DNA of 16,615 nt from Acaryochloris marina S15 (GTDB lineage: Bacteria; Cyanobacteriota; Cyanobacteriia; Thermosynechococcales; Thermosynechococcaceae): contig NZ_CP064922.1 of NCBI RefSeq assembly GCF_018336915.1, positions 1 through 16,615 of the forward strand, in the 5' to 3' direction. Of this stretch, positions 1-16,504 are shown one piece after another. The translations under genes were made by a program, and so were the position numbers. The notes beneath the pieces were generated by a model that did not search any database, had not been told where the DNA came from, and was given only the letters and a program-made list of their open reading frames with translations. Every line of letters starts with the position of its first letter. The stretch's first letter is position 1.

Positions 1-14
1 TTCTCTGGAGAATA

Positions 15-404
15 ATGATGGCTAAGGGGGCTATATCTCAATTTATCTCACCGGCTCAGCTAGCTGAAATCAAGGCAGAACTTCAAGGGCTTTCTAAACT
101 AGAACCCGGTGCTAAGACTGTCCAAGATGCAGTTAAAGAGTTGATACCGATTATTCGAGGTTGTCGGGTTAGAGGTCATTCTTGGAAACGTATCTCTGAA
201 TCCTTTAGTCGGGTAGAGGGAATCTCTGCTGCTTCTCTTCGTAAGTATGCATATGAGTTAGATCCATCTTTGAAGAAGCCAGTTAAAGGAATCGTACCAA
301 AAGCTAAAAAGTCATCTGACCCTGTAAAAGTAATTGAACCCACGATAAAACCCGAACCCAGTCCAAAAACAAAGTCACCAGATCCCAAAAAGGTGAGGTT
401 CTAA
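15..404 (+). CDS. Small DNA-binding-like protein with Pro/Lys-rich C-terminal tail; possible relaxosome/oriT accessory protein (TraK-like position)
   Basis: The 129-aa ORF starts at an ATG with GGAG at 7-10. It has an HTH-like segment HSWKRISESFSRVEGISAASLRKYAYEL followed by a PK-rich tail (KPEPSPKTKSPDPKK). It is the first gene of a + strand pair with the TraL-like ATPase. The function rests on position and analogy only. Confidence 0.5.
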   Translation: MMAKGAISQFISPAQLAEIKAELQGLSKLEPGAKTVQDAVKELIPIIRGCRVRGHSWKRISESFSRVEGISAASLRKYAYELDPSLKKPVKGIVPKAKKSSDPVKVIEPTIKPEPSPKTKSPDPKKVRF

Positions 405-450
405 GTTCAGATCATTGTTGGATTGATTACACACTGTCAGCAAGTTGGTA

Positions 451-1233
451 ATGGCAAAGAAGAAAATCACAACTAAAGATAAATCTCAAGGTCACTATGT
501 CAATCTCTGGTCTGGACAAAAAGGGGGGACTGGAAAATCTTGGGGGTCTCGTCTTGATTGCCAACGACATATTGACCGTAAACAAGATTTCTTTTTATTG
601 GATGTAGATGAGGGTAATTCTTCTACTGCTCATTTCTATAGTGATTATCTATTCCACAAGTCTGCAAAGCTAACTGAGGTTGTGGAGCGTTCTAGTTTGG
701 CTAATTCAATTCTGGAGGCTCCCCGGACTAAGCCCACAGTAGTGAATTGTCGAGCGGGTACTAATGAAGCGTTGTTGACTTGGCTCAGTACTAAGCCTGT
801 GACAAAGATGGCACAGCAGTTGGGTATTCGGATGCGATATATCTTTGTTAGTGATCTAGATAATGATTCACTCCAGCTATTTAGACCGACGGTAGAAACC
901 TTCTTCCCTTATATGCCATTGATTTTTGTGGCTAATCTAGGACGCAATATGATGGGGACAGAGTTCTTTGATTCGAAGAGTTTTCAGAATTTATTGCAGG
1001 AGTACAAGGTGCCTGTAGTGAAGGTGCAGCAGTTTGACTTAGAGCTAAAGCGGCAGATGGAAGGTCATAATCCTGAGCAGCGGTTGTTGACCTGGGGGGA
1101 AGCTCTAGAGCATGAGTCGTTTGGCATTCTAGGACAGGCTGAGATACAGGCTTATTTGGGTGATTTCTATGAACAGCTCGACGGAGCCGAAAGACTCGCC
1201 GATTTGGAATTTCCTCCAAAAGCATCACGCTGA
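451..1233 (+). CDS. ParA/MinD-superfamily P-loop ATPase, TraL-like (conjugal transfer accessory)
   Basis: A deviant Walker A motif SGQKGGTGKS lies near the N-terminus, followed by an LLDVD Asp box. Length and motif order look collinear with IncP TraL as I recall it from memory; this is not aligned. ATG at 451 is preferred over the TTG at 445 used by the ORF track. Confidence 0.6.
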   Translation: MAKKKITTKDKSQGHYVNLWSGQKGGTGKSWGSRLDCQRHIDRKQDFFLLDVDEGNSSTAHFYSDYLFHKSAKLTEVVERSSLANSILEAPRTKPTVVNCRAGTNEALLTWLSTKPVTKMAQQLGIRMRYIFVSDLDNDSLQLFRPTVETFFPYMPLIFVANLGRNMMGTEFFDSKSFQNLLQEYKVPVVKVQQFDLELKRQMEGHNPEQRLLTWGEALEHESFGILGQAEIQAYLGDFYEQLDGAERLADLEFPPKASR

Positions 1234-1339
1234 TTTACCAACTTCTATCAAGCTGAAGACTTTTAAGCAGCTCCAAGACTGTGCTGTACCGGCAACAGAT
1301 AAAATATTTCCTTAGATTGTCGTAGCAATCATTAATCGA

Positions 1340-2099
1340 GTGATTGAAGAATCACTGCAAAGTGATCTACAAGGGTTAAAGCGGGAGATTAAAGAAACAC
1401 CCAAAGAAATCGGGCGTCAAATTTTGACCACTGTCACAACCGTCTTAGGCCTTCCAATAGTAATGGAACAATTTGGCCGGTAGAGATTGAACTGTCCCAT
1501 TTACAATTATTGGGCAGTGTGGATTAGATTTCTTGAAAACCTTATAGGACATAGATTTTGGGTTCATACTGTTCTATTTACACACAATGATGGAACAGTT
1601 TTGTTCCATCTAATATCTTCATTCATACGATTTTGCATGATGAGCAAGCCAAAATCTTGAAATGCTTGTTCTCACTCGCTTTCATAAATAGCTTTCTCAT
1701 CCTACTGGCCAAATTGCTCCGTTACTATTGGAAGGCCTCTTAGAGGATTCCGTTCAAGAAATTCGCTCAGCTCGTCAAGATATCAGGGGGTTAACCCAAG
1801 AGTTAAGGGCATCTGCTGTTCTAGATTCATCTTTGTCTCAGTCTGGATGGAGAGGCATTGGAACAACAATTGGAGCTATCTTTCGATTAGATAATCTAAA
1901 GATAGTAGTCGCTGGGATGATCTCGATAGGGTTCTTAGCAGGAATAGGGATTGCTAATTGGTTTGCATCTGGAGATCGAGATATCATTCACTTCAATCGC
2001 AAGGTGATCCAAGATTGCCATCAAAACTATGCAGCAGACGCTGATAAAAATGGTTGGTACACTTGCCCGCTCTTTCAATTACCCATGCCCCGAGAATAA
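1340..2099 (+). pseudogene. Small coiled-coil / single-TM membrane protein gene interrupted by a MITE-like insertion
   Basis: An open frame runs from 1316 (the best start is GTG at 1340) up to codon TTA 1445-1447. Removing 1448-1742 joins it in frame to GAG at 1743 of ORF 1728..2099. The restored protein reads ...KEIGRQILTTVTTVL|EDSVQEIRSARQDIRGL... with the TM helix IVVAGMISIGFLAGIGIANWF. The inserted DNA carries an in-frame TAG at 1481. Confidence 0.7.
1448..1737. mobile_element. 290-bp non-autonomous MITE-like element with ~31-bp terminal inverted repeats and a 5-bp target duplication
   Basis: The left TIR is GGCCTTCCAATAGTAATGGAACAATTTGGCC (1448-1478). The reverse complement of the right TIR (1707-1737) is GGCCTTCCAATAGTAACGGAGCAATTTGGCC, giving 29/31 identity. 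TCTTA is present at both 1443-1447 and 1738-1742. The element contains no ORF. It has an internal hairpin GATGGAAC-AGTTTT-GTTCCATC. Confidence 0.8.
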
Positions 2100-2117
2100 C
2101 TGAGGAGAGTTATAGAA

Positions 2118-2462
2118 ATGGCGACTACTGCCCATATCCAAATCACCTGCAAAATCTCTGAAGTTCCAAAATCAAAGGCTGTCAACGGCCTGGTGGAGTT
2201 CTACTTAACCGAAAACAATCAGGCAGTGATGGTACGGGTCAAACCCAAACAATTCAAACAGCTGACGGATCATCAGTTTGAGTATTGGACAGCCTCCATC
2301 GTGGGTAAGCTCGGTCCAGTCAATGAGAGAGGCTTTGAATTACTCAATTCTGGTATTCAGGTCTACTCAAGAAAACCTAAAGCAGGCGAAGTCCCCAACC
2401 ATCAAACCCATCAAACCTCTAACGCCAAGAAGAAGCTTACAGAGGGGGTCCACTTTGGCTAA
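2118..2462 (+). CDS. Hypothetical protein (114 aa)
   Basis: ATG at 2118 has GGAG at 2104-2107, and the gene starts 18 nt after the stop of the upstream gene. I recognise no family. Its 3' end overlaps the convergent Rep-like gene by 26 nt. Confidence 0.6.
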   Translation: MATTAHIQITCKISEVPKSKAVNGLVEFYLTENNQAVMVRVKPKQFKQLTDHQFEYWTASIVGKLGPVNERGFELLNSGIQVYSRKPKAGEVPNHQTHQTSNAKKKLTEGVHFG

Positions 2463-3471
2463 AGCGGAAGTTAAGGGGGTTCATTCCCTGCAAGATCTTG
2501 ATGGAGAAAGCAAAGGCTAGTTCTGTCCAAGGTTGCCAGTCTCCTTTTTCCGGGTTCGTACAGACACACATTTGCCCATTAACTGGCATGGAGGCTGTCA
2601 CAATGCCTTTCTCTCGGGCCAGATTAAACCATTCATTAAAACCATCAGGCATTCCCGCCACTGCATCAATCGGGTTAGGGGACCAATGTTCTTGAATGGC
2701 TTTGACGAGCATCCCCGCCGGTCTCTTAGCCCGTCCTGCTTTTTTTTGTTGTCTGACGACACTCAAGGCATTTTGAATAATCTCTACAGAGGCAGACATC
2801 ACCACTCGTTTGATGTTCATATTCAGCGGTTGAGGAGCGATCACCTCTTCCACCTCAGCCTGTAATTCTGGGTCTATTATTATTTCTTCGGAGGAAAGCG
2901 GCACGTTTGGAGATTTAGGGATTGGAGCAGGATCTGTTCTTGTCTCTTTACATTCCTTAACGTCTTGATTTTCCACATTGAGGTTTTGGGTAGAGCTAGG
3001 CAATCCATCCTTATCAATTTCTGACTTTAGAACAGGGGGGAGTGGGTGGTGTGTCTTTGTTGTTTCTCTACTCTCTCTATAAGAAGGAACGCAGTCATAA
3101 GGCTTTGAAGGCTGTAAATTGGAAATTTCTTTCCAATTTTGGGAAATTTTTTTCTCGTTTTGGGAAGTTTTCTGCTCGTCTGCAGTATCGGGATGGTGGG
3201 CGATTAGTTTCCAGAATCGAGTGTTGAACTTATAGATGCTCTCTACTAATCCTTGTTCGATCAGGGAATTAAGGGCGTTACGAATCTGACGGGTGCAGTA
3301 GGGGCGTTTGCGGCTGTGGCTGCTGAAGATTTGGAATTCTTCTAGGTCAAATTCTTGTTGCTGTCCGGCGGGGCGGCGGCGTAGAAGCCACTGATACAGG
3401 GAACGAGCAGCGGGGGGAAGCTGCATCAGGATGCGGTCATGCTCATCCGTAATTCGGGCAAAGGCTATCAT
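2437..3471 (-). CDS. Putative plasmid replication initiator-like protein (N-terminal winged-helix, low-complexity linker, conserved-looking C-terminal domain)
   Basis: The 344-aa ORF has AGGAG at 3484-3488, 12 nt upstream of the ATG. Its N-terminus (LPPAARSLYQWLLRRRP...CTRQIRNALNSLIEQGLVE) looks wHTH-like. It is divergent from parA across a 490-bp non-coding region. The Rep role is inferred from context, not from a recognised family. Confidence 0.5.
   Translation of the reverse strand: MIAFARITDEHDRILMQLPPAARSLYQWLLRRRPAGQQQEFDLEEFQIFSSHSRKRPYCTRQIRNALNSLIEQGLVESIYKFNTRFWKLIAHHPDTADEQKTSQNEKKISQNWKEISNLQPSKPYDCVPSYRESRETTKTHHPLPPVLKSEIDKDGLPSSTQNLNVENQDVKECKETRTDPAPIPKSPNVPLSSEEIIIDPELQAEVEEVIAPQPLNMNIKRVVMSASVEIIQNALSVVRQQKKAGRAKRPAGMLVKAIQEHWSPNPIDAVAGMPDGFNEWFNLAREKGIVTASMPVNGQMCVCTNPEKGDWQPWTELAFAFSIKILQGMNPLNFRFSQSGPPL
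3112..3174. repeat. Three imperfect 21-bp tandem repeats inside the Rep-like coding region
   Basis: The units are ctgtaaattggaaatttcttt / ccaattttgggaaattttttt / ctcgttttgggaagttttctg. I counted 13/21 and 15/21 identities between neighbours. They encode heptad repeats QKTSQNE-KKISQNW-KEISNLQ on the - strand. Confidence 0.6.
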
Positions 3472-3673
3472 TTTCTCTCACTACTCCTGTCGATGATTGG
3501 GAGCGAGTTCGATAGATGTCGTTAAGCTCTCTTACAGAATGCTTGTCACCGATATAGAGAAGCTCTAAAATAAGTAAACGACATTATGGGTCCCTAACTT
3601 CTGCCTGGGAAAAGCATTTCAGTTAGATCCCGCGAATACTCGCTAAAAGACGATTTAGTTTTTTAGCCTGATG

Positions 3674-3703
3674 CCCGAGCTGCTTCTAACAGCTGGGGTT
3701 TTT
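3674..3703 (+). terminator. Orphan terminator-like hairpin plus T-run in the rep-parA intergenic region
   Basis: The sequence is CCCGAGCTG-cttctaa-CAGCTGGGG, a 9-bp stem with 1 mismatch, followed by TTTTT (3699-3703). No annotated + strand gene lies upstream. Confidence 0.3.
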
Positions 3704-3859
3704 CAGGTTTTGGGGGGGTTAGAACACCTTTTCCTCCAAAAAATAATCGATGATGAATCTTAATCATCTATACTACGCCTCTAATCGGCTTTGGGAAACC
3801 ATTTAAAACAAATGATCATATGGGTTCCGAGATTAGATTCACGAACCATAATTTCAGAG

Positions 3860-3925
3860 ATTCAAAATTTCGCCAATTTGAAATTATGAATATTTGAAAT
3901 TTTACAAATTCGCCAATTCATATTA
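3860..3925. promoter_or_regulatory. parA promoter/operator and candidate centromere-like repeat cluster
   Basis: TTCGCCAA occurs at 3869-3876 and 3909-3916, 40 bp apart. ATTTGAAATT is a direct repeat at 3876-3885 and 3892-3901. The inverted repeat TTCAAA...TTTGAA flanks the first TTCGCCAA. Sigma70-like hexamers (TTGAAA, CATATT/TATTAA) are present but their spacing is ambiguous. The region ends about 40 nt upstream of the parA ATG. Confidence 0.45.
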
Positions 3926-3961
3926 ATCTGCCTACGTCCGTAGAATCGAGATGAGTCAGCA

Positions 3962-4555
3962 ATGTATATCACTGTTGCAGGATTCAAAGGAGGTGTCGGG
4001 AAAACCACGACAGCAGTCCACCTAGCTTGCTACTTATCACAGCAAGGGAAAACTCTGCTTGTTGATGGGGATCCAAACCGAAGCGCAACAAGCTGGGGAA
4101 AGCGTGGTAATTTGCCTTTTAAAATTGTGGATCTGATGGCCGCATCAAAACATAGTCAAGGGCATAATCATGTGGTGATCGATACTCAAGCTCGTCCTAA
4201 CCAAGATGAAATAGAAGCTCTAGCAGACGGATGCGATTTACTAATTCTGCCAACAACACCTGATGCACTCGCTATTGATGCATTACTTCAAACAGTAGAT
4301 CTATTGCAGACATTAGGTAATGGGTGTTTCAAAATTCTCTTGACACAAGTTCACCCCAAACCTGTAACGATGGCACAACAAGCCAGGAAGGCACTTGAAG
4401 GAGCGGGACTACCCATCTTCTCTGGACAAATCAGGCGTTTAATTGCCTACGAGAAAGCAACTCTTGCCGGATTACCAGTCAATAAGGTACGTGATCGAAA
4501 CGCCAAAAATGCATGGCGCGACTATGAAACTATTGGTAAGGAGATTTTGGTATGA
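3962..4555 (+). CDS. parA: Type Ib plasmid partition ATPase ParA
   Basis: The 197-aa protein has an N-terminal deviant Walker A motif AGFKGGVGKTTTA, then LLVDGDPNRS and VVIDT boxes. Its stop overlaps the next gene's start (ATGA at 4552-4555). Confidence 0.9.
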   Translation: MYITVAGFKGGVGKTTTAVHLACYLSQQGKTLLVDGDPNRSATSWGKRGNLPFKIVDLMAASKHSQGHNHVVIDTQARPNQDEIEALADGCDLLILPTTPDALAIDALLQTVDLLQTLGNGCFKILLTQVHPKPVTMAQQARKALEGAGLPIFSGQIRRLIAYEKATLAGLPVNKVRDRNAKNAWRDYETIGKEILV

Positions 4556-4890
4556 GCCAAGATGACATGTTCCAAAAATTGGTAAAGACTCACCGTAAAT
4601 CCCAGCCCCAAAAAAAGCAGGCTACAACTCCCAAAACTCCAAGAGAAACTAAACGTCGCGGTCGGCCCGCAAATGGAAAACGATCAGATCCAAACTGGAT
4701 TGGCCGCACTTACTATGTTCAAACAGAAACTGACCTAGATGTAGAAGAGCAGCTACTAAAATTAAAGCGTGAAGGCAAGGAATTAGATAAATCCGAATTG
4801 GTGGATGCCCTACTTGGTGCCTGGGTAAAATGGCGACAAGGCGAAGATTCAGAGATTCTAATTGGCGAAATTTCGCCAAGGCAAATTTAG
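4552..4890 (+). CDS. Ribbon-helix-helix centromere-binding partition partner (ParG-like)
   Basis: It is translationally coupled to parA. It has a basic disordered N-terminus (KKQATTPKTPRETKRRGRPANGKR) followed by an RHH-like pattern: strand TYYVQTET, then helices DLDVEEQLLKLK and DKSELVDALLGAWV. Confidence 0.65.
   Translation: MSQDDMFQKLVKTHRKSQPQKKQATTPKTPRETKRRGRPANGKRSDPNWIGRTYYVQTETDLDVEEQLLKLKREGKELDKSELVDALLGAWVKWRQGEDSEILIGEISPRQI
4862..4879. promoter_or_regulatory. Perfect 18-bp palindrome TTGGCGAAATTTCGCCAA (candidate ParG-like/operator or centromere site)
   Basis: The sequence is its own reverse complement. It contains the same TTCGCCAA core, and the 12-mer AAATTTCGCCAA, found upstream of parA. 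It sits in the last codons of the RHH gene, just upstream of the DUF4258 gene's likely GTG start. Confidence 0.5.
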
Positions 4891-4903
4891 GAACTATGGG
4901 CCA

Positions 4904-5212
4904 GTGAAGATTACAGGCATCATTAAAGCTATTCAACAGGGGCAAGTCCAGATCACTGATCACGCTGATGAAGAGGCAGAAGATGATGATTTGGGCTTTG
5001 AGGAAATTTTCTTTGCTACCTGTGGAGGGGAAATAATTGAGACTTATCCCACCGAGAAACCTTACCCCAGATGTCTAATTTTCGGAGAAGATCCTAGCGG
5101 AAAAGCAGTTCACAGTGTTTGGACCTATGATCAGAAGACAGGTATTGCAGTATTGATCACCGTGTACCGGCCAGACCCACGACGCTGGATTGACTGGCGT
5201 ATTAGGAGATAG
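4904..5212 (+). CDS. DUF4258-like putative toxin
   Basis: The motif pattern ITDHADEE...GEIIETYPTEKPYPRCLIFGEDPSGKAVHSVW...VLITVYRPDPRRW matches my recollection of DUF4258 proteins. GTG at 4904 is preferred; the ORF track's TTG at 4862 would overlap the RHH gene and the palindrome. The stop lies 2 nt before the next gene's ATG. Confidence 0.6.
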   Translation: MKITGIIKAIQQGQVQITDHADEEAEDDDLGFEEIFFATCGGEIIETYPTEKPYPRCLIFGEDPSGKAVHSVWTYDQKTGIAVLITVYRPDPRRWIDWRIRR

Positions 5213-5214
5213 AG

Positions 5215-5460
5215 ATGGAACATCTTGAAAACTGTCCCGTTTGTGGTGGGCAACTAACTGAAAAAAGCGTCACTAAGGTTCTAAGGGGTGGTGGCCATAC
5301 AGCCTCAACCAAAGTCCAGGCAGACGTTTGCTTAAGTTGCGGGGAACGTATATACGCTCTTGATACTATCAAGCATTTTGCAGCCATCCGTAGCAAGCTT
5401 AAATGTCAGGAAATAAATGAGTTTGAACCGACAGGGCAAGCATTTCAAGTAGTTTCATAA
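5215..5460 (+). CDS. YgiT-type (MqsA N-terminal-like) zinc-finger protein, putative antitoxin
   Basis: The 81-aa protein has two CxxC pairs (CPVCGG ... CLSCGE) with the spacing typical of YgiT-type zinc fingers. It is tightly coupled to the DUF4258 gene. Confidence 0.65.
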   Translation: MEHLENCPVCGGQLTEKSVTKVLRGGGHTASTKVQADVCLSCGERIYALDTIKHFAAIRSKLKCQEINEFEPTGQAFQVVS

Positions 5461-5483
5461 CTGTAGAATTAGCTTACCTATGA

Positions 5484-5505
5484 TTAACTTCTACCAAGAA
5501 GTTAA
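5484..5505. terminator. Hairpin between convergent genes (weak bidirectional terminator candidate)
   Basis: TTAACTTCT-acca-AGAAGTTAA forms a perfect 9-bp stem. It lies between the YgiT gene stop (5460) and the - strand operon stop (5521). The stem is AT-rich and has no clear U-tract. Confidence 0.3.
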
Positions 5506-5520
5506 GCAATCTATAAAATC

Positions 5521-6045
5521 TCAACCTAGTTTTACGCTGAGGCCAGAGTTGGGCTTTACCAATGGGCTTCCAAAACTTGCCTTAGTGCGTTTGAGTTGTG
5601 CTTCAACCTCTTCAATAGATACACGATTTCCGAGCAATTTTTGTGATTCTGGTCTAGGCTCAGAACGCTCTTTGGCTCGATAGATAACCAGTTGTGAGAT
5701 TCCTTCGTCTCGCGCACGTTTGCAAAGTCCGAGGATATAAAATCGATTGAATTGTCCTTCCGCCATTGTTTCTGCGGCTGTATCCGGAACATGCTTAATT
5801 GTATAGCCACCTGATGGTTTGTGAGCACCTTCAAACTCTTTCATTAATGCATTCGCTTCAAGCTGATAAGCGAGCCAATGCTCATTATGTTTCTCAGCAG
5901 CCTGTTTAAGTAGTGAAAGCCATTGATCTTTTCCTGCCTGATTAAATCGATTACTGTAATATATGTTGTTGGTTCTATCTGCTTCTTCAATAGCTTGTAA
6001 CATTGAAGCACGAGTTACACTGTCAAGATTCTCAAAATCAAACAT
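5521..6045 (-). CDS. Hypothetical protein (174 aa), last gene of the four-gene operon
   Basis: Its start overlaps the HNH gene stop (TAATG at 6043-6047). I recognise no family. Its composition is clearly less AT-rich than the three upstream genes (27/60 G+C on line 5701-5760). Confidence 0.7.
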   Translation of the reverse strand: MFDFENLDSVTRASMLQAIEEADRTNNIYYSNRFNQAGKDQWLSLLKQAAEKHNEHWLAYQLEANALMKEFEGAHKPSGGYTIKHVPDTAAETMAEGQFNRFYILGLCKRARDEGISQLVIYRAKERSEPRPESQKLLGNRVSIEEVEAQLKRTKASFGSPLVKPNSGLSVKLG

Positions 6046-6371
6046 TATCTGTTCTCTCCTATTTCAATTTTTACTGATTTTTTTCTATTGCAATTGCTAC
6101 AGAGAAGTTGAAAATTTTTTTTATCTACGGCAAATTCAGGATACTTACTTATAGGTTTTATGTGATCCATTTCTAGTAGTTCAATAGGTAGTTTTGTTTT
6201 GCATTTGCAGTTTGGATTTGCGCATAGAGCACCTTGTTCTGAGTACAGACTAAGTTTTAGAGACTTACCTTCATCAGAACTTCTGAAACTTGAGTATCTA
6301 TTGATAGCAAATTTAATGAGTCTTTTTTCTATATATTTCTTACTATTAATATAATTCTTGAAGAAATTCAT
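6045..6371 (-). CDS. HNH endonuclease
   Basis: The 108-aa protein contains CANPNCKC...LEMDHIKPIS...NFQLLCSNCNRKK. That is the Cys pair, DH and N...CxxCN layout of the HNH motif. ATGA start/stop overlap with the upstream gene lies at 6368-6371. Confidence 0.85.
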   Translation of the reverse strand: MNFFKNYINSKKYIEKRLIKFAINRYSSFRSSDEGKSLKLSLYSEQGALCANPNCKCKTKLPIELLEMDHIKPISKYPEFAVDKKNFQLLCSNCNRKKSVKIEIGENR

Positions 6372-6715
6372 CTTTGAATAGATTCGAGCATTTTCCCTAC
6401 TGACTTAAATTTTCTTTCCAGTTCTTCTTGATTGGAATAAAATTGGCTTATTAATGAAGGTTTTTCTGGCTTCTTGAATTCTATTATTTTATATTTATTT
6501 TGTATATTTATTTCTAGATTTTCCAATGATCTTATGGTCGTATTTTTTGTTCTTGGAAGCTTTTTGTATAAACTTATTGATTTTATGACCTCGCTAATAT
6601 TGTAGAAGTAAGTCAATCCTTTGATATTCAAATATTGAATATTTTTTGTTATTTTTACTGCTTGATATTGGCTTGCCCCTAAATCTCTAAGCTGTCGCCT
6701 TGTGATCGTTTTCAC
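6368..6715 (-). CDS. Hypothetical protein (115 aa), possible N-terminal HTH
   Basis: The GTG start overlaps the upstream stop (GTGA at 6712-6715). The N-terminus TITRRQLRDLGASQYQAVKITKN is weakly excisionase/HTH-like. The gene is very AT-rich. Confidence 0.6.
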   Translation of the reverse strand: MKTITRRQLRDLGASQYQAVKITKNIQYLNIKGLTYFYNISEVIKSISLYKKLPRTKNTTIRSLENLEINIQNKYKIIEFKKPEKPSLISQFYSNQEELERKFKSVGKMLESIQR

Positions 6716-7092
6716 GCGGCTTTCTCCTCTTCATAGTCGTTAATCTCTTTTTCAAGATCACTATCTTTCTGCCAACCATTGGGAATAGCCCATCTATATA
6801 AAGGACCTAACTTACACATTAAGAAGTCAATTAACTGCTGAACTTTATTTTTATGATCATCAAAATCTTTTTTGAGATTTTTGTATGAATTATCTATTTT
6901 CGTAACTTGAGTTTTTGCTCCACGACGATCATATTGTCTTTGTAGAAGTTCTGGCCCAGCGTAACTTGCCAAAGCTAATGCTGCTGAGAGATCGTCTGTT
7001 GGTCTGATTGATACATTTTTAAATGCTCGTTTTGCATCGGCTGCTGTCCAACCTAATGATTGAGCAAATTTTATAAACTCTGCTTGAGTCAT
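6712..7092 (-). CDS. Hypothetical protein (126 aa), first gene of the four-gene operon
   Basis: ATG at 7092 is followed by about 300 bp of AT-rich non-coding DNA upstream. I recognise no family. Confidence 0.6.
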   Translation of the reverse strand: MTQAEFIKFAQSLGWTAADAKRAFKNVSIRPTDDLSAALALASYAGPELLQRQYDRRGAKTQVTKIDNSYKNLKKDFDDHKNKVQQLIDFLMCKLGPLYRWAIPNGWQKDSDLEKEINDYEEEKAA

Positions 7093-7398
7093 TTTTAGAT
7101 AAAGCTTTTCTATCTTAAGCTTATACTGCCCAAATCTTTATATATAGCTGCCAGACTGGATAACAGCTTAACTATTCATCTATGTCTAGTCATTTTCAAG
7201 AATGACGATGCAAGAGATTTAGTATCTATAAATCCTAGGAATATTCGATATTGATAAACTCCCACCCTATCTCGCTAGTCGCCAACTATTGATAATTACT
7301 TAGCAGGTTCAGGGAAGAGGATAAAGCAGTTCTGGTTCTTGCCTAGGTGCAATCGAATATAGATGAAGATTGTCTTAATGCTTACTTTGTAAATGAGT

Positions 7399-7764
7399 TT
7401 AATTGTTCTTTTGTCCTAGATTTCTCAGTTTCTTGCGTATTGCTTTGAGTTCGCTGGGAGATTTCCAGTTTTCAGGTTGTTCTAGACGATAAACATCTGT
7501 GCGGCCAGGTCGCTCATGTTTTGAAATAAATCCTCCATCATTTAAGAGGCGTAATCCTTTCTGTGCACGGCTTAATGACATTTGACAGACTTTACTAATA
7601 TTCACTTGGCTAGCGAAGCATTCTCCTTCAAAACTTCCTCCGGTACGACGAACAATATGCCCAAGTAGCCGGAATTCAAATGGATCGAGACCTGCTTCAT
7701 CCAAACGACTGTGGATGAACATCAGATCTAGCCTTTTTTTTAATGCTGTCTCATCAGAATTCAT
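7399..7764 (-). CDS. Winged-helix/HTH DNA-binding protein
   Basis: The 121-aa protein carries the pattern LDPFEFRLLGHIVRR...GECFASQVNISKVCQMSLSRAQKGLRLLNDGGFI...RPGRTDVYRL. This is typical of HTH_36-like replication or regulatory wHTH proteins, judged by eye. Confidence 0.6.
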   Translation of the reverse strand: MNSDETALKKRLDLMFIHSRLDEAGLDPFEFRLLGHIVRRTGGSFEGECFASQVNISKVCQMSLSRAQKGLRLLNDGGFISKHERPGRTDVYRLEQPENWKSPSELKAIRKKLRNLGQKNN

Positions 7765-7900
7765 AGATGGTGGCGGTTTTTAGATTTCAAGTGTAGAATT
7801 GGTAGGCACCTATATTATATCTGATATACATAAGGTATTACCTTAAAGGTATTTATTTAGCTCACGAAATTACGTGTATCGAGTAAAGGAAAAATAAGTC

Positions 7901-8089
7901 GTGGAAACCTCTAATAATCCAAAAAGCTCCACCTATCAATGGTTGATAGCTTTTCTGATCGTTGCTCTAGTTGCAATGCTATGTCTCACAATAGCCCTCA
8001 AAGGGGGAAACTTTGATCTTGCAGTTGAATTATTTGGAATAAAACTTGATGCCATAGTTCAGGTAAATAACCAATTAGCCTCCCCTTAG
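7901..8089 (+). CDS. Possible small single-TM membrane protein (62 aa)
   Basis: A GTG start has AAGGA about 11 nt upstream. The hydrophobic helix is WLIAFLIVALVAMLCLTIAL. There is no other support. Confidence 0.35.
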   Translation: METSNNPKSSTYQWLIAFLIVALVAMLCLTIALKGGNFDLAVELFGIKLDAIVQVNNQLASP

Positions 8090-8235
8090 TGCATCAAACT
8101 CTCTTGAGGCTTACAAAGAAGTGAAGTTACGCCTTGAACGATCAGGATACTATCCTGGTGCTATCGTGATTATTCTTATATTGGCTAAAAATTACTGAAG
8201 TTATTAAGCCATTAGAAAATTTTCGGCTTTGTATC

Positions 8236-8856
8236 TTATAGATCTAGGGCTTTGAGATACTTTTTTACAGTGTTGTAAGCTAAACCTGACTCTCGACTTA
8301 TTTTTCCTTTGGAATAACCTTTTTTTCGCATTTTTATAAGCTTTGGTTTGTACTGCTCAAATTTACTAGGTCTTCCTAACTTCTTACCCTGAGTTTTTAC
8401 CCTTGCTAGTCCGGCCTTAGTGCGCTCGGAAATTTTCACGGCTTCCTGTTGAGCTAGGTAAGATAAGACGGCAATCAATATATGAGCAACTAATTCGTTA
8501 TCCGTATCTAGTAAGGGTTCAGTGAGACTTTTGAACCGGACACTTAGCTGGTTAAGTTGCTGGAGGTAATAAATGGTTTTCTGAATGCCTTCACGAGTGA
8601 AACGGTCTAGCGACCAAAATAGTACCAAATCAAACTTTCGTCTAGCAGCATCGTCAAATAACCTGCTAAATTCACCACGTTCTCGCCTACCCTTCCGGCC
8701 AGATTCATAATCTAGATAGATATCATAAATATCCCAGCTCTGTCGATCACAAAATTCTTGTAACTGTAATAACTGATTATCAGTTTCTTGTCCCTTGTTC
8801 GCTGTAGAGACACGTAAGTAAATTGCAACTTGAATTTTGTGATTGCGTTTAGACAT
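8236..8856 (-). CDS. Serine recombinase (resolvase/invertase family)
   Basis: It has VAIYLRVSTANKGQETDNQ (catalytic Ser region), SLDRFTREG, ERTKAGLARVKTQGKKLGRP, and a C-terminal HTH (YSKGKISRESGLAYNTVKKYL). Confidence 0.9.
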   Translation of the reverse strand: MSKRNHKIQVAIYLRVSTANKGQETDNQLLQLQEFCDRQSWDIYDIYLDYESGRKGRRERGEFSRLFDDAARRKFDLVLFWSLDRFTREGIQKTIYYLQQLNQLSVRFKSLTEPLLDTDNELVAHILIAVLSYLAQQEAVKISERTKAGLARVKTQGKKLGRPSKFEQYKPKLIKMRKKGYSKGKISRESGLAYNTVKKYLKALDL

Positions 8857-8867
8857 GCCCAGACCAT

Positions 8868-8975
8868 ATCAAAAAAGGGTCCTTTTTTGATGGGTGTTAG
8901 CAACGTGTCTAAATTACGAATTTATAGGGGTTTGACTGTTCTAGAATTCGCACCCCTTTTTTGATAGGTGTTGGC
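8868..8975. promoter_or_regulatory. res-like recombination/operator site upstream of the serine recombinase
   Basis: The inverted repeat ATCAAAAAAGG-GT-CCTTTTTTGAT (8868-8891) has 11-bp arms and a 2-nt centre. The 21-bp direct repeat CCTTTTTTGATGGGTGTTAGC (8881-8901) matches CCTTTTTTGATAGGTGTTGGC (8955-8975) at 19/21 positions. Confidence 0.55.
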
Positions 8976-8976
8976 T

Positions 8977-9276
8977 TCAATTTTTGTGGTCTAATCGGTA
9001 ACCAAGAGCATGCATGATGGCATTGACACACTCGAATTTCGGATTACCTTGCTCCGAAAGAGCTTTTTGCAAACCCTTTCTCTTCATCCCGGCAGCAACT
9101 GCAGTTTCTGTGCTACCCCGTGCGCATGCTACGGTACGGAGAGAAGCTAGAAGCGCTCCGATATTTTCATCTTTGGCATATTCCTCAAAGATGACAGAAA
9201 TGTATTCCTCGATTTCCTCGGGATGCTGGCGAAAATAATCGTTCTCGATCTGATCAAGAGTCCTAAGTTTATGCAT
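8977..9276 (-). CDS. Addiction-module antidote protein (HigA-like HTH antitoxin)
   Basis: The 99-aa protein shows the pattern ...IGALLASLRTVACARG...GMKRKGLQKALSEQGNPKFECVNAIMHALGYRL. This is typical of the antidote partner of RelE/ParE-superfamily killer proteins, by recollection. Confidence 0.75.
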   Translation of the reverse strand: MHKLRTLDQIENDYFRQHPEEIEEYISVIFEEYAKDENIGALLASLRTVACARGSTETAVAAGMKRKGLQKALSEQGNPKFECVNAIMHALGYRLDHKN

Positions 9277-9518
9277 TATCTAGATAATCTCTCCAGTAAT
9301 TCCTCGTTTTTTTGATGTCTTGGGTCTGAGTGCTCTTATCTCACAAAGAATGATCGCAATTGTGCTTCTGTCCTCCCCGAAATAAACTCTGTATCAAGTA
9401 GGACCAGCAGGGGCATCTGAACAGAAAGTTACGGTTTTGAATTTTTAGGAATTCTCGCACTGATCTTCTTGGGATTAAGGCTTGATCCTGCCTGGTCTGC
9501 TTCAATTTCTGTATCCAC
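9269..9518 (-). pseudogene. Decayed addiction-module killer (RelE/ParE-superfamily) gene
   Basis: The - strand translation yields family-like pieces in three different frames. The first is VDTEIEADQAGSSLNPKKISARI.. followed by a stop. The second is ..GPT*YRVYFGEDRSTIAIILC, with an in-frame TGA at 9394-9396. The third is DKSTQTQDIKKTRNYWRDYLDNA*. The ancestral stop TAA (9269-9271) overlaps the antidote ATG (9274-9276), as in intact pairs. Confidence 0.7.
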
Positions 9519-9761
9519 TATTAAGTAAGGGTTTTAGCGATTCTGGGCTTCATCGCTAAAAAAAGATAGCTTGAGAAGGTTTACTGAGCTTTGAGTTTTA
9601 GGTGAGTTTTCTTGTGCTGATCGTGGCCATAATCTGACCAAATGCGGAGTGTCAAAAAAACGAGGGTTTTCTGATCGAACAAACGTACTACAGGTGAACT
9701 ATTTATAGGACATGGGTTTCAGGTGAAACCGTAGGTTTTTGTTCAAATGCGCACGCTGGTC

Positions 9762-9939
9762 CAACTCATTCGCTCGATAGGCCGTATTAATCCCCCAGTG
9801 TAAACAGACACAGATTCCGAGGACTACCCGACAACAGCTGCTTAATCCCCGAGATTGCTTTCTTCGTCCGAATCGGCTCCACTTTAATCGAAGATCCCAA
9901 CTTCGGATGGCTTGGCTTGGATCCCTTCGGCAATGGCAT
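9762..9939 (-). pseudogene. N-terminal fragment of a tyrosine recombinase/integrase, frameshifted and truncated
   Basis: The - strand reads MPLPKGSKPSHPKLGSSIKVEPIRTKKAISGIKQLLSGSPRNLCLFTLG. A run of 5 C (9792-9796, G on the - strand) then shifts the frame. With one base fewer it continues INTAYRANEL, the ..PRN..LF.LGINT..R..EL pattern of integrase N-terminal/core-binding regions. No catalytic domain follows. Confidence 0.5.
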
Positions 9940-10053
9940 AACCCACCTAAAAAGTAATTAAGTTATCTTCCTTATCAACCTATAACTTAATCACCTTATT
10001 TTCCCTTCTCACCCAGACAAAGCCCCAACCCACCACTCCATCTTCATCCCATC

Positions 10054-10108
10054 CCCCTACTCTCTATGATTAACTATTGGCTCAATAGTTAATCATAGAG
10101 AGTAGGGG
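10054..10108. repeat. 55-bp perfect palindrome (26-bp arms, 3-nt loop)
   Basis: The left arm is CCCCTACTCTCTATGATTAACTATTG (10054-10079), the loop is gct, and the right arm is CAATAGTTAATCATAGAGAGTAGGGG (10083-10108). I checked base by base and found no mismatch. Confidence 0.9.
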
Positions 10109-10122
10109 TAAGACCTATCCGG

Positions 10123-10286
10123 ATATTGCTAGGTGGTGAGGTGAGATTATCTCATACCCTCTTGGAAGTCCCCTTGGAATCAGTACTTCGGGGAAAATAT
10201 ATAAGATCACACAGAAATCTGAAAGTCTCTGATGTTGAAGCATTTTAGCAAGGGGGATGAAATAATCTCCCACCACCATATTGCTA
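10123..10286. mobile_element. 146-bp MITE-like element (10132-10277) flanked by a 9-bp direct duplication
   Basis: ATATTGCTA occurs at 10123-10131 and 10278-10286. Immediately inside are imperfect terminal inverted repeats. The left one is GGTGGTGAGGTGAGATTATCTC (10132-10153). The reverse complement of 10259-10277 is GGTGGTGGGAGATTATTTC. There is no credible ORF inside. Confidence 0.6.
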
Positions 10287-10496
10287 TAGATGATAGGAAA
10301 GATCACTTTTGCAGGAAAGTCAAAAAGATTATTGATAAAGTAAATGCAATAAAAACCTAAAATGTATAAAGTAAAATCATTCTAGTGCTATTTGTATTTG
10401 AATGTACCCTAAATCATCAAAGATGCTGCGGAGCTACTATTTTGTGCGTCTTCATCTAATCCAAGACTTGTTTTATTGATAGTTTATAAATAAAAA

Positions 10497-12542
10497 TTAC
10501 TGGGTCAGTTCATTCCCATCTACATCAACCTGATGAATAATTTGGGAAGAGTGAATTCGCCATTTCTTGTAGTACTCGGAAACATCATTACGATGGATTT
10601 TTCTAGGTTCGACTACACATCCAATTGCTCTATCTTTTATGAAATCAAAATCACCACTCAATAGATCTGTAAAAAAGGATAAGGCTGCCTGAGTGGCCAT
10701 CCCAGTAATTCCGCCAATCCAAATAACATTGTTATCCAGATTAAAAATACTCTTTGAAATTATTACAAACCCTGCATGTGGATGATCATTTGAATGTGAG
10801 CCAAAGTAAGTTTTATTATTAGAACCTCCCGCAACTACTGGCTCAGTACATCTGCCATCAGGCGTCATAGAAAATTTTAACGGTTCAATGACATGATTCA
10901 ACAGAGCTGCATAAAGATTGATAGTTCCAGATCCAACAACAATAACATTTCGATCCGTGACTAAGTCAGCAGTATCTTGCCATTCATCAATTCCTACTTT
11001 TAGATCTAGTTTATTGATCTTTGATAATGCTTCTATTAAACCAACCGTATCACTAGTTGCAGCACTCGTAAGCAGGCCTCCTCTATCTCTATTTGTCTCT
11101 CCTAAAATAACTGCCCATTTACTCCTTACGCCTGACATACATTCTTGCAAATCTTTTAGTGTTATGTCAGGCCGTAGATATCCCCAGTTTAAGAAGCATA
11201 ATGCAGGTATGGCATCTTTTTGGTTTAGCGTAAAATGTCTAGCTAACTTTTCTTCTTGAGGGTTTAAAGCACGGTGTTCAAGAATATAACGGTCTGATTC
11301 TTTGGTTGGACGAAACAACCTTTCTATAAGTACTAGTTTGCTATAAACAGAGTTTGATACTGCAATGCGACCAGTGGGACACTCTTTTTGCAATTCAAGT
11401 GCAGTTCGTAATCCCTCAGATCCCCCTACTTGTCTCTGATCATTAGGAATATCGCTTAATTGCGTATCTTCACTGTTAAGTGCAATGCCAATACGCACAA
11501 ACAATGGCGTATTTCTAAGCACTTCGTTTTTTATATTTAGATGCTGCAGATGTTCCAGAAATCTTAACGAAGCAAAAGCAGCTTCCTGTGGATCATCATA
11601 TAAATATATTCTACAGTTACCTTCGCATAGCCATTCATGACCACCAAAGTTTTTACAAAATATTTTCTCTGAAATCTCTGCGAAATCTCTCATAAATGCT
11701 TGATATGAGACATCTGCATTCACTAGGGTTCGAAGCTGTTCAATATGGGAAATATCCATATTTACAATTGTCTCCGGCACTGACCTCATCAACTGCTCTC
11801 CCAGTTGTAAATTAGCTGTAGCAATCTTGAGTCGATATCCTAAATCTTCCATCACAAATATTTGTGGTGTCATTTCAGGAAATTTTTCTCTTGCTTTGTT
11901 ACTAACATAATGATGCAAATCGCCAGTAGTAATTACATTATCAGCATCTATATCTGCTTCACCTGTGCGAATACCCTCCACCAAATGATGAGTATAAATC
12001 GACAACCGTTCTCCAGTTTCATGAAATGAATATTCTGTTGAGCTTGATGATGTCAGTACTACTCGACCCTCTGCTATCAGTTCTCTTTCTATATCCAATT
12101 TCCCATCATCAAGAAATCTTCTATTACCAAATGCTCCACTAAAACAGCAATCTAAAATTATCACCTGCTTTTTGGCCTTACAGGAATTCAGCCAATCATT
12201 CACAGATTGAGCAGCCAGTGCTGTTGAGGTTAATAACTTATTGCCTTCCTTTTGGCTTGTCTTTGCAGCAAAATAGAGCTGTAGTTGGAAATCTTTTACA
12301 CCATGCCCAGTTATGTAGAGTAAGACAAAATCATCTTTCTGGCGACGTCTTAGCCAAGTTTCAATTTCCTCTCCCATCTCCCCATGAGTAGGGTCTTCCA
12401 ACAAGTCTACCTCTTCAAAATTACCCATCGCTGGGTTGAGTAATACTTCTTGAAGTTCTCTGAGATTATTGTGAGGAAATCTTCCGAGATGTTTGAATGA
12501 TGTGTAATCTGCTGTACCAATCAATAAAGCAACTCGTGCCAT
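10497..12542 (-). CDS. Caspase-like (peptidase C14, orthocaspase-type) protease fused to a divergent cyclase-homology-like domain and a Gly-loop Rossmannoid C-terminal domain
   Basis: The first ~245 aa show the caspase pattern ALLIGTADY..., YITGHG (His80) and VIILDCCFSGAF (Cys133, codon 12144-12146). Residues ~255-440 thread by eye onto class III nucleotidyl cyclases (VNMDIS.., FGGHEWLCEGNCRIYLY, LFVRIGIALN, GGSEGLRTALELQKECPTGRIAVSNSVYSKL). Residues ~470-681 have beta-strand/Gly-loop units AVILGE, NVIVVGSGTINLYAALL and VIWIGGITGMATQAALSFF. The protease call is confident; the other two domains are hypotheses. Confidence 0.8.
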   Translation of the reverse strand: MARVALLIGTADYTSFKHLGRFPHNNLRELQEVLLNPAMGNFEEVDLLEDPTHGEMGEEIETWLRRRQKDDFVLLYITGHGVKDFQLQLYFAAKTSQKEGNKLLTSTALAAQSVNDWLNSCKAKKQVIILDCCFSGAFGNRRFLDDGKLDIERELIAEGRVVLTSSSSTEYSFHETGERLSIYTHHLVEGIRTGEADIDADNVITTGDLHHYVSNKAREKFPEMTPQIFVMEDLGYRLKIATANLQLGEQLMRSVPETIVNMDISHIEQLRTLVNADVSYQAFMRDFAEISEKIFCKNFGGHEWLCEGNCRIYLYDDPQEAAFASLRFLEHLQHLNIKNEVLRNTPLFVRIGIALNSEDTQLSDIPNDQRQVGGSEGLRTALELQKECPTGRIAVSNSVYSKLVLIERLFRPTKESDRYILEHRALNPQEEKLARHFTLNQKDAIPALCFLNWGYLRPDITLKDLQECMSGVRSKWAVILGETNRDRGGLLTSAATSDTVGLIEALSKINKLDLKVGIDEWQDTADLVTDRNVIVVGSGTINLYAALLNHVIEPLKFSMTPDGRCTEPVVAGGSNNKTYFGSHSNDHPHAGFVIISKSIFNLDNNVIWIGGITGMATQAALSFFTDLLSGDFDFIKDRAIGCVVEPRKIHRNDVSEYYKKWRIHSSQIIHQVDVDGNELTQ

Positions 12543-12946
12543 TAGCTCAATTGCCCCTTCGCAATCACCTTTACCTTTATTTTCTGAATATCAGCAATTC
12601 GTTCCAAGGCAGCGACTTGAGCATCTAATTCCTGATTAGTTTTGTACTTTAACTTAACTGTACGACCTGCTTCCTCATATTCTAGTTCTAGAAGATGGGC
12701 AGAAAATATATTCAAAAGCCAATCTAAGACCTTTTTGAAATTTGCAAATTTAATTTCTGCTTGTAGAAAACCCAGGTCAAATCTCCCATCTACAGACAAA
12801 GCACCCCGCGGTATTTGATCAGCACGAACCAGTGATGCTCCATCTGAGATTTCTCCCAATTCATCGACAAGCCTTAGACTGTATGCCTCTAAATGTTTCG
12901 ACTCCAACTCCAGATCAGACTGATTAATATCGATTAGAACTTGCAT
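12542..12946 (-). CDS. Small partner protein (134 aa) translationally coupled to the caspase fusion; possibly EACC1-like (unverified)
   Basis: Its stop TAA (12542-12544) shares one base with the caspase ATG (12540-12542). The overall pattern MQVLIDI..ELE..L...L..L.DEL.....LVR....P.GA.S......L....F..VLDWL....LELE...GRTVKL resembles, from memory only, the effector-associated constant component proteins described next to caspase/trypsin effectors. Confidence 0.7.
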   Translation of the reverse strand: MQVLIDINQSDLELESKHLEAYSLRLVDELGEISDGASLVRADQIPRGALSVDGRFDLGFLQAEIKFANFKKVLDWLLNIFSAHLLELEYEEAGRTVKLKYKTNQELDAQVAALERIADIQKIKVKVIAKGQLS

Positions 12947-13041
12947 GCGAGTGCTACTTACAAGGCTGGTACATCCCCCAGTCTAGTAGATATCAATGCT
13001 CCCAATATATGCTCAAAGGTAGCGAGGGAGTATAACAGTCC

Positions 13042-16000: not shown

Positions 16001-16398
16001 CTGATGACTTTCCTCTGTTGTTTGACTTGGGCAAAGATGCAGTGCTCTTCTATATAGTTGACAGTTGCATTGACGGCTTGGCGATGGGCCTCTAGTACTC
16101 TTTGATCTTGATCTACTAATCCCTTGATAGATGCAGACTTACTAGCTGACAGGGTAATATCCCATCCGGCCCTACTATTCTTTTGCTGTCGTCTTAAAGC
16201 TTTATTGTTGCTGTCTTTGCCATGACAAGCTTGTTGCCATTGCTCAGCGGTGATGCTTCCGGTTAGATTTTGGTGTTCTGAGAATTGTCCTTGCCATTGG
16301 GAGTTCTCTAGTCCATCCCCTTGACTGTAGTAATTATCCTTAGAGTGATAGGTCTCTAAGGCTTTAGCATTCATCGGTTTGCTGATGCTAGCAACCAT
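13042..16398 (-). CDS. MOBF-family relaxase-helicase (TrwC/TraI/TraA-like) with Gln-rich coiled-coil C-terminal extension
   Basis: N-terminal relaxase motifs are ETYHSKDNYYSQG (Tyr region), WDITLSASKSASI and FEHDDNRNQEPQLHTHVVILNQT (3-His motif, close to TrwC FRHETSRERDPQLHTHAVILN). The RecD-like helicase shows LLQGNAGVGKTYTL (Walker A), LVIDEAGML (Walker B), LILVGDIKQL, TVHAAQGW and YVALSRAK. The last ~270 aa are Q/E/R-rich. Confidence 0.95.
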   Translation of the reverse strand: MVASISKPMNAKALETYHSKDNYYSQGDGLENSQWQGQFSEHQNLTGSITAEQWQQACHGKDSNNKALRRQQKNSRAGWDITLSASKSASIKGLVDQDQRVLEAHRQAVNATVNYIEEHCIFAQVKQQRKVISEQTKQGQFALFEHDDNRNQEPQLHTHVVILNQTLCADGKSRTLDSRELFNQKKTIGAYYDHTFARQLQKQDFEIDWTGDHTFEIQGYEPEQLESFSSRRQDIRAYLEQQNIPIEQATEHQKQIACLDSRVAKVHKLIPADRDLQRQNWQKTSTELNIIHPQPHQELEQAYKQTAHPGSIQRVIDDAIESATAQQVAVSRPRLLQDCLRHAQAFYSPIEIEQALDQSQELIPTEDGRLTTHRAIHREQIILDSANEGRDSKAALITPEQVRATSAEKNLNTGQTNGLLHLGISTDLITLLQGNAGVGKTYTLSAFRGALDNTAQSKLRGLAPSAAAAEVLGQEIGMVSGTVDRYLLMPNEQLQREETLVIDEAGMLSTQQMVALIEKAKDLNSRLILVGDIKQLNAVQAGAPFRLLQERSQLKTVTIDENLRQVTPQLKEAVDLAAEQQTQTALELLDSHGCVQEIPILKTRNHGVAQRYLSRPHERQVQTLIICDTNQDRRDITNLIRSAYIDRQTLGAEAQDIEMLHPKKLDKQAISQAYNYEVGDVVRFRRSTKRFSEPFYRVIEVTGDQLQLQDRFGDIKDCLLDKYKDREVFSTQELELRVGDRLRFTRNHREWGQINGQLLTIDSFNQDGTISINTRGKFETLMSDQLVHVDYAYCRTVHAAQGWTAQEAIWAPGQNPGKEQTYVALSRAKTELEIVTVDRQALGLSAERSRGQENAQDLVVTEPTFSAQRDAELLMLQRDVKTWLQQAHPEPPDPEVGKDLQWQVRYMAEQRSDLVVSCREQQQELEEMTPQRSLFNWGGERPEVIEAKRQLLQESRQQLGYVEGTLRQLQGQLQERQQEKDIYQQWDEAPKTQLMREKVVHLQEPDVQDRLQQLKLAYGLYANCVKILDRFGVEEDGVRVFQGQRYRFESESQRVRLFRNDMEQPIFQTIDMRQSGGILEVRQLDVRADDYQRINASVRSVEQQISYSIRQEGFSLGR

Positions 16399-16504
16399 AT
16401 GGTCTTTGAGATCTATAGTTTAGGATTCTTTAGGTTTACTAACTATCAGTAAGTTATGTGTAATTTATTTCTTTACGGGGTTTATTGATTGTACTTGATT
16501 CCTT

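Follow-up and report, generated by a model that had tools for sequence, protein, structure and literature searches.

Four small genes that overlap stop to start, one of them annotated as an HNH endonuclease, lie on the minus strand of a plasmid of Acaryochloris marina S15, and the question they raise is whether so tightly packed a block constitutes a single genetic system. The window analyzed here is the whole 16,615-bp contig, and we refer to the genes as gA, gB, gC and gD and to the first three together as the triad. A preliminary description, made from the sequence alone, had presented the four as one compact operon with the signature of a defense or exclusion system, and had offered a phage-derived packaging or homing remnant as the alternative. 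We find that the block, although one tightly packed four-cistron unit, is near-certainly a composite of two unrelated mobile units, the triad and gD, joined by chance.

The four-gene block and its two units

The open reading frame (ORF) list and the sequence bear out the four minus-strand genes, with the sizes and coordinates first given for them, and the overlaps that link them on the coding strand, GTGA at 6712-6715, ATGA at 6368-6371 and TAATG at 6043-6047 (TCAC, TCAT and CATTA, respectively, as plus-strand letters). The unit is compact and co-directional, as had been said, and no terminator-like site was found inside it. Since homologs of all four genes are found elsewhere under purifying selection, these ORFs have not arisen by chance.

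The synteny check suggested in the preliminary description divided the block. Direct searches with gA and gC returned one close relative each, and more loci were reached by family look-ups with gB; 18 further triad loci were collected from these look-ups, from a match on a plasmid of Gloeothece verrucosa PCC 7822 and from a metagenome scan with a gA profile. All 16 of the other loci that are long enough to judge carry gA, gB and the HNH gene on one strand and in the same order, and intergenic distances in the complete triad loci range from -29 to +26 nt. In the closest relative, locus L034 (HNH proteins 63% identical), the GTGA and ATGA overlaps recur unchanged, as does the GTG start of gB; the L034 triad ends at the HNH gene, beyond which lie convergent, unrelated genes. 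Across 12 loci, the pairwise identities of each triad protein correlate with those of the other two (r = 0.86-0.90), and the ratio of nonsynonymous to synonymous substitution rates (dN/dS) in three close pairs is 0.07-0.41 over all three genes (gA, 0.07-0.29; gB, 0.20-0.41). The genes gA, gB and gC are a co-inherited mobile three-gene cassette under purifying selection, and the idea of a compact operon of a nuclease plus unknowns holds for this cassette because its three genes pass the synteny test.

The fourth gene does not pass it, and the proposal that all four form one system fails on this point. gD was found in 0 of the 16 other triad loci; all three triad genes are missing from each of 32 loci compared, of which 31 are gD loci; and in a profile search of all ORFs of all loci gD adjoined the triad in the window only.

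DNA alignments of the junction with L034 and with gD relatives indicate how the two units came together. Homology between the window and L034 continues through the stop codon of the L034 HNH gene, where a 5-nt deletion in the window gC shifts the frame and gives a nine-codon extension that runs to a TAA overlapping the gD ATG. Some 20-25 nt upstream of this ATG the sequence passes into the ribosome-binding region consensus of the gD family (AGGAGAGAA). Close gD relatives (L002 and L051-L053, more weakly L003) have a conserved leader and a TGCTATAAT extended -10 element approximately 70 nt upstream of the ATG. The window gD has neither, while its ribosome-binding site is kept, which argues that gD was captured as a promoterless fourth cistron. 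Because leader and 3' flank are conserved among close relatives, the single-gene gD unit travels together with a control region of its own. The junction looks like an accident of recent date, and gD is probably no part of the triad mechanism but a passenger that now relies on the triad promoter for its transcription. Overlapping stop and start codons are thus no proof of one functional system, as here a 5-nt deletion fused two unrelated mobile units.

Base composition agrees with the mosaic structure that had been noted. The G+C counts first reported, 18/60 at 6421-6480 and 12/60 at 6481-6540 against 27/60 at 5701-5760, are exact, and the AT-rich first three genes (G+C fraction 0.316) differ from the near-average fourth (0.417) and from the rest of the contig (0.425). 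The triad genes make up the most AT-rich kilobase of the contig: 26 of 1557 sliding 1048-nt windows are equally AT-rich, and these cluster at this locus. Low G+C characterizes the lineages of the window, L034, L045 and L048 but does not extend to the whole triad family.

Table 1. Genes of the block and associated features in the window and in related loci.
Feature	Position	Strand	Description
gA	6712-7092	-	126 aa, ATG start; QUY40423, annotated hypothetical
gB	6368-6715	-	115 aa, GTG start; QUY40422, annotated hypothetical
gC	6045-6371	-	108 aa, ATG start; QUY40421, annotated HNH endonuclease
gD	5521-6045	-	174 aa, ATG start; QUY40420, annotated hypothetical
Triad-gD junction	6046-6075	-	DNA alignments with L034 and gD relatives
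Upstream control region of triad	7093-7262	-	About 90% conserved in related contig L033
gD leader and flank	L002, L051 and L003 5850-6003; L053 4819-4972		Leader of ~70 nt plus ~40 nt of conserved 3' flank; no Rfam family
Plasmid backbone	1-3818, 9762-10102, 13044-16605		MobF relaxase, FinO-like gene, 344-aa putative Rep, integrase fragment; common to pMB09

The 5' end of the cassette is marked by a related contig, L033 (1-1001; Logan SRR12447966), which has about 90% DNA identity to the window cassette. L033 shares approximately 170 nt before gA, including a promoter-like TTGAAA-17 nt-AATAGT site (7199-7171 in the window), and nothing further upstream; this places the 5' limit of the cassette about 170 nt before gA and leaves a 121-aa helix-turn-helix gene at 7399-7764 outside it. 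Promoter-like sites in this region are not above shuffle expectation. In L033 gA has two in-frame stops and a small deletion, so that this contig holds a decaying copy of the cassette. A TTATCAATA repeat has its proximal copy at 7249-7257 and a second copy at 7287-7295, outside the control region. A search for operators upstream of the triads showed TTGAT/ATCAA-type palindromes and the TTATCAATA repeat, but these are indistinguishable from -35-like hexamers in AT-rich DNA and are not put forward here as operators.

The block lies within an accessory segment (3819-9761) of a MobF-relaxase plasmid whose backbone is 80-85% identical to that of pMB09 from Acaryochloris sp. 'Moss Beach', which is without the block. 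Everything between the backbone stretches of the window is variable cargo relative to pMB09. Megablast of the locus against PLSDB gave no match, and an Rfam scan of the window and five gD loci found no family.

The triad proteins and the gD family

Both triad hosts that can be identified are cyanobacteria, and the loci are on plasmids as well as chromosomes. The flanking genes and the sequences upstream of the triad differ in every lineage. Neighbors on plasmids include divergent ParA/ParB genes (L046), a Prim-Pol/DUF3987 primase (L043), an integrase (L045) and BrnT/BrnA (L036). On a 6-Mb chromosome (L040) the triad is near GroES/EL, a PD-(D/E)XK nuclease-family protein (PDDEXK_2) and a caspase-NB-ARC protein, the last being a 1385-aa Peptidase_C14-NB-ARC gene just downstream of the triad; another triad neighborhood has histidine kinases. 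The Gloeothece megaplasmid triad (L035) has Cro-like helix-turn-helix, BRO and MuF genes within 3.5 kb, and also an IS630 transposase. The accessory segment of the window itself holds other toxin-antitoxin (TA)-like pairs beside the triad. Recurrent insertion at one conserved target gene or site, which a free-standing HNH homing endonuclease would show, is not seen.

We found no relative of the triad in phage collections. The gA profile had no relative among 2.9 million IMG/VR contigs, and tblastn with a typical gB found none in 50,697 phage records. In plasmids, tblastn with the Gloeothece gB and the triad HNH protein returned Gloeothece itself only. The suggested comparison with PADLOC was also made, and no named system fits the block: with PADLOC-DB v2.0.0, gA, gB and gD had no match and gC had generic HNH-core matches only, and 31 members of the gA and gB families gave four unrelated single matches and no consistent system.

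The N-terminal part of gA is a small helical domain (consensus TKKxAIxFAKxxGWTAxDAxRAF ... FAGPEL..RQ); it is followed by a middle stretch in which no domain can be recognized and by a conserved C-terminal motif, and the protein has no assigned family. It has one close homolog only among 5.8 billion proteins, and its family was recovered via synteny; identity to the Gloeothece homolog is 37% (E 3e-11). Nothing lies above threshold in Pfam, where two matches are weak and sub-threshold, and there is no match in PHROGs, NCBIfam, PADLOC or PDB sequences. That gA and gB might be paralogs was rejected, as their comparison was negative.

For gB, an exhaustive HMMER search delimits a family of about 20 representatives of 100-150 aa. 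The AlphaFold2 model (pLDDT 87.5) has the order strand-helix-helix-strand-strand-helix followed by two long helices, and gB is predicted to have a winged helix-turn-helix of MerR/excisionase topology; on this model it is probably the DNA-binding component of the triad. The top Foldseek matches in PDB are the MerR-like CbpM (3ucs) and CvkR (7xn2), which at E 0.7-2.8 are not significant. Nothing lies above the curated cut-offs in Pfam, NCBIfam, PADLOC or PHROGs, and no PDB sequence match is convincing.

That the third gene is an HNH gene, and the only one with a recognizable domain, had been stated from the outset and proved correct: gC matches Pfam HNH PF01844 at E 2.5e-9, above the gathering score, and phrog_5956 HNH at 2.5e-13. 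Residues C50, C57, D69-H70, N86, C91, C94 and N95 are invariant in the family alignment, and gC is apparently an active zinc-finger HNH nuclease with its catalytic residues all intact. Its nearest solved sequence is 5h0m (E 7e-5, almost full length), which we take to be the HNH protein of the thermophilic phage GVE2, working with its terminase. Further solved-sequence matches are to long HNH-domain nuclease chains (8w2z, 8zq9, 8w2s), Cas9-type HNH domains (4ogc, 8d2k) and PtuB. Against PADLOC, NCBIfam and PtuB models only the HNH core aligns, far under the cut-offs.

gD belongs to a family of 513 clusters at E <= 0.001, nearly all of exactly 174 aa. Identity of gD to the best 120 of the 513 clusters is 64-81%, and 60-81% across phyla. 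The family was placed in 27 loci (one genome per species) scattered over many phyla, among them Acidobacteria, Chloroflexi, Cyanobacteria, Ignavibacteria, Bdellovibrio-like bacteria, WOR-3, Patescibacteria, Deltaproteobacteria, Gemmatimonadota and Verrucomicrobia; it is likewise present on Bacteroidota and Actinobacteria plasmids. Its sole real family match is phrog_30545, an unannotated family (full length, 7e-22). gD has no Pfam match at E <= 0.1 and no PADLOC match, and neither NCBIfam nor a search of PDB sequences with the gD profile gave anything above a curated cut-off or with a convincing E value. A literature search for the gD family found no describing paper. Comparison of the window copy with its nearest relatives gives saturated synonymous sites and a dN/dS of 0.06-0.13, so that the family is old and strongly constrained rather than the product of a recent sweep. 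In five of about 35 loci (L009, L014, L020, L021 and L022) gD is split into two ORFs by a frameshift or stop, which indicates frequent decay of an otherwise strongly constrained gene.

The neighbors of gD include defense and effector genes: a complete CBASS operon, AAA_13 and SMC-like ATPases, type I HsdR and type III Res, patatin-like proteins with methyltransferases, and a DUF2235 lipase-like protein beside an ABC-three-component system or a ThiF-family protein. Others are cargo of integrative and conjugative element (ICE)-like type beside a single-stranded DNA-binding protein (SSB), and housekeeping genes, among them those for H+-pyrophosphatase, ribonucleotide reductase and permeases. A patatin-like protein of 650-680 aa is encoded directly downstream of gD in three metagenomic loci (L051-L053), and a DUF2235 gene directly upstream of it on two otherwise different Hymenobacter plasmids (L057 2110-3798, L058 3868-5534); a conserved gD partner was rejected, as these two neighbors occur in those loci only.

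One gD homolog was found among 50,697 phage genomes and none in IMG/VR. The phage copy is in the jumbo Erwinia phage pEa_SNUABM_54 (L001 3989-5018; MW879341 181610-182639) and has 33% identity; 1 nt after it lies a NADAR-domain gene (E 1.5e-40), a single instance that hints at ADP-ribose/NAD biology.

The AlphaFold2 model of gD has a pLDDT of 87 and a pTM of 0.85. Foldseek found nothing in PDB at E <= 1, and against BFVD the named top matches were nearly all MuF, minor-capsid or head-morphogenesis proteins (TM score up to 0.57, probability up to 1.0, best E 2.5e-3). In its modeled fold gD is similar to the MuF/gp7 head-morphogenesis domain, a domain of unknown function whose gene sits immediately downstream of the phage portal gene (PMC5576092). 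No portal gene was found beside gD among the annotated or scanned neighbors, not every flanking ORF of every gD locus having been scanned.

The Gloeothece triad locus has a solitary true Phage_Mu_F gene (L035 1321-2232; NC_014533 790231-791142; E 1.1e-13) 2.4 kb from the triad, with no portal gene adjoining. Alignment of the gD profile with this protein by hhalign was negative (probability 0.3), and no second MuF or gD gene was found in any triad locus. A MuF gene near the Gloeothece triad and a gene with a MuF-like fold abutting the window triad may be coincidence within mobile DNA.

Possible functions of the triad

The reading we prefer, at a probability of about 0.4, sees the triad as a nuclease-based module for conflict or addiction, of the type II or tripartite TA, or abortive-defense, kind. 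It is suggested by a predicted DNA-binding protein directly upstream of an enzyme, a third small protein, translational coupling, and location on plasmids and at variable sites beside TA pairs. In such a module the HNH protein gC would be the DNA-cutting effector. The N-terminal winged helix of gB would bind DNA, for operator autoregulation, targeting or both, and its helical tail may restrain the nuclease, gB being translationally coupled to gC and immediately upstream of it. gA would be a third, regulatory or adaptor subunit, and plasmid loss, a phage or a stress cue would free the nuclease.

Several points weigh against this reading. It draws entirely on architecture and context, and the neighborhoods are mobile or variable rather than clear defense islands. 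gA has no recognizable feature that gives it a role, and the MerR-like label of gB comes from predicted topology only, with no significant fold or sequence-profile match. We are not aware of any HNH nuclease among the well-established type II toxins, and the literature searched yielded no paper describing the triad. Finally, gD is probably co-expressed here, given the tight TAATG coupling, so that a local functional link with the triad is possible.

The triad, with its two new partner families, is previously undescribed, and two uncharacterized families, the triad and gD, are now delimited. If it is a TA or defense module, it adds a new architecture and may serve as a plasmid-stability element for cyanobacterial genetics. 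A bolder proposal, which we regard as improbable, is that the triad is a new cyanobacteria-centered three-component nuclease immune or addiction system and that gD, independently, is the first stand-alone cellular MuF-fold conflict protein. In that event gA and gB would define new families, a helical adaptor and a MerR-like DNA-binding clamp that gate an HNH DNase, and gD could be, for example, a decoy or sensor that binds phage portal or packaging proteins, or a partner of lipase-type effectors (patatin, DUF2235). Such a conflict role would account for the strong conservation of gD despite its scatter in defense-rich mobile DNA of more than 10 phyla. The gD family has more than 500 clusters and a dN/dS near 0.1, with neither a Pfam entry nor a relative of solved structure; its role, once known, could inform on the MuF domain.

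Among the alternatives to a conflict or addiction module, one is that the triad is a methylase-independent, type IV-like restriction nuclease, in which gB, with or without gA, would recognize foreign or modified DNA and the HNH protein would cut it, with no antitoxin logic. The intact HNH active site, the partner gB predicted to bind DNA, the lack of a methyltransferase in the cassette and the occurrence in variable regions and on plasmids, as for restriction genes, are all consistent with this. It is nonetheless unlikely, as no known modification-reading domain was detected and no PADLOC restriction model fits consistently (one of 31 family members has a sporadic MTase_II match). Type IV enzymes are usually single polypeptides, and three tightly coupled subunits would be unusual.

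Another is the phage-derived remnant of the preliminary description, as a packaging or hijacking module with a small-terminase-like gB, a packaging HNH protein in gC and a MuF-like head protein in gD, such that a helper phage would cut and package the plasmid. A phage protein is the nearest solved HNH relative of gC, whose best PHROG families are also phage HNH endonucleases. A winged helix followed by a helical tail, as predicted for gB, is typical of small terminases such as lambda Nu1, and one of 19 gB family members matches the terminase small subunit family phrog_141 (3.5e-4). The predicted fold of gD and the Phage_Mu_F, BRO and Cro-like genes by the Gloeothece triad point the same way. 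These likenesses, weak as they are, are what stands of the remnant proposal; it is contradicted by the lack of genes for a terminase large subunit, portal or capsid both in the window and around every other triad, and by the absence of gA from IMG/VR and of gB from the phage genomes searched. Moreover, the gB family compared with lambda Nu1 by hhalign has a probability of 0.24, no Pfam terminase match occurs in the 19 members, and the three genes are kept by purifying selection as one unit on chromosomes where no prophage genes are near. We therefore consider a packaging module quite unlikely.

The triad might also serve its own mobility or the DNA processing of its element, as a homing-type HNH nuclease with helpers or as an accessory of replication, resolution or transfer. 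Many unrelated flanks are expected for a mobile cassette, a decayed copy exists in L033, and ParAB, Prim-Pol and integrase genes are frequent neighbors, joined in the window by a resolvase. On the other hand, the loci show no insertion target or flanking repeat in common, and for the chromosomal copies by groEL or histidine-kinase genes there is no plasmid function that they could serve; as pMB09 shares the backbone without the cassette, the cassette is also dispensable for that replicon. Such a role is, in our judgment, very unlikely.

That all four genes are one defense or exclusion system with gD as an integral part is hardly credible, for although the genes are co-directional with overlapping stops and starts, no internal terminator-like site was found and gD relatives are often beside CBASS, type I and III restriction subunits, AAA_13 and SMC-like ATPases and patatin-like or DUF2235 lipases, gD and the triad genes are not found together at any other locus compared, the two differ in composition, and their junction arose from the 5-nt deletion in gC and the loss of the gD promoter.

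Neighboring candidate conflict genes and comparison with known systems

Three further gene pairs in the window may be conflict genes. A DUF4258 protein (E 1.8e-18) at 4862-5460 on the plus strand is followed after 3 nt by an 81-aa zinc-ribbon protein with weak MqsA-antitoxin similarity; the two are probably a TA pair, directly abutting the 3' end of gD. At 8977-9505 on the minus strand is a HigA-like 'addiction module antidote' gene (PF21716, E 2e-14), upstream of which there is only a 54-aa ORF with a TTG start (9341-9505) and no intact toxin gene, and this may be a decayed TA pair. A 681-aa caspase-like protein (10497-12946, minus strand; PADLOC 'caspase', E 1.5e-11) has a 1-nt overlap at its start with a 134-aa gene for which PADLOC gave no match. 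Both genes are located in another accessory segment (10103-13043), which pMB09 lacks, and they are a candidate protease-based conflict pair.

Compared with known systems, gD is like the short MuF minor-capsid proteins (MuF/gp7, PF04233) in predicted fold, with TM scores of 0.5-0.6. It differs from them in having no PF04233 match and a negative hhalign result with a true MuF protein, and in being a stand-alone cellular gene with its own promoter that is essentially absent from phages.

Phage packaging HNH endonucleases such as HK97 gp74 and the GVE2 HNH protein (5h0m) are encoded next to terminase genes. gC resembles them in size (about 110-130 aa) and in its zinc-finger HNH domain, and 5h0m is its top solved match; the E value of that match is modest, however, and the triad has no terminase or portal gene nearby and is absent from phage collections.

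In Septu and the type I-A retrons, whose effector is PtuA-PtuB, the HNH nuclease PtuB is held by the ATPase PtuA. The triad is similar in that a small HNH protein is encoded at the end of a compact operon whose other products are non-enzymatic, and PtuB models are the best PADLOC matches of gC (2e-8), with PtuB also among its PDB sequence matches. Only the HNH core of about 65 residues aligns, however (gC ~36-101 with PtuB model ~40-104 of 223), and gC scores 21.5 bits against the NCBIfam NF041761 PtuB cut-off of 150. There is also no PtuA ATPase of the AAA_15/AAA_21 type, no ATPase domain having been detected in gA, gB or gD.

The tripartite type II TA operons include omega-epsilon-zeta and PaaR-PaaA-ParE. 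Although the triad has no sequence relationship to any known TA family, and its putative toxin would be a DNase of the HNH type and not a kinase, a gyrase poison or an RNase, it is like these operons in having three small, overlapping, co-directional genes, with a predicted DNA-binding protein and a second small protein encoded upstream of the enzyme. It also shares with them an occurrence on plasmids and at variable chromosomal sites, next to other TA pairs, and the co-evolution of its genes.

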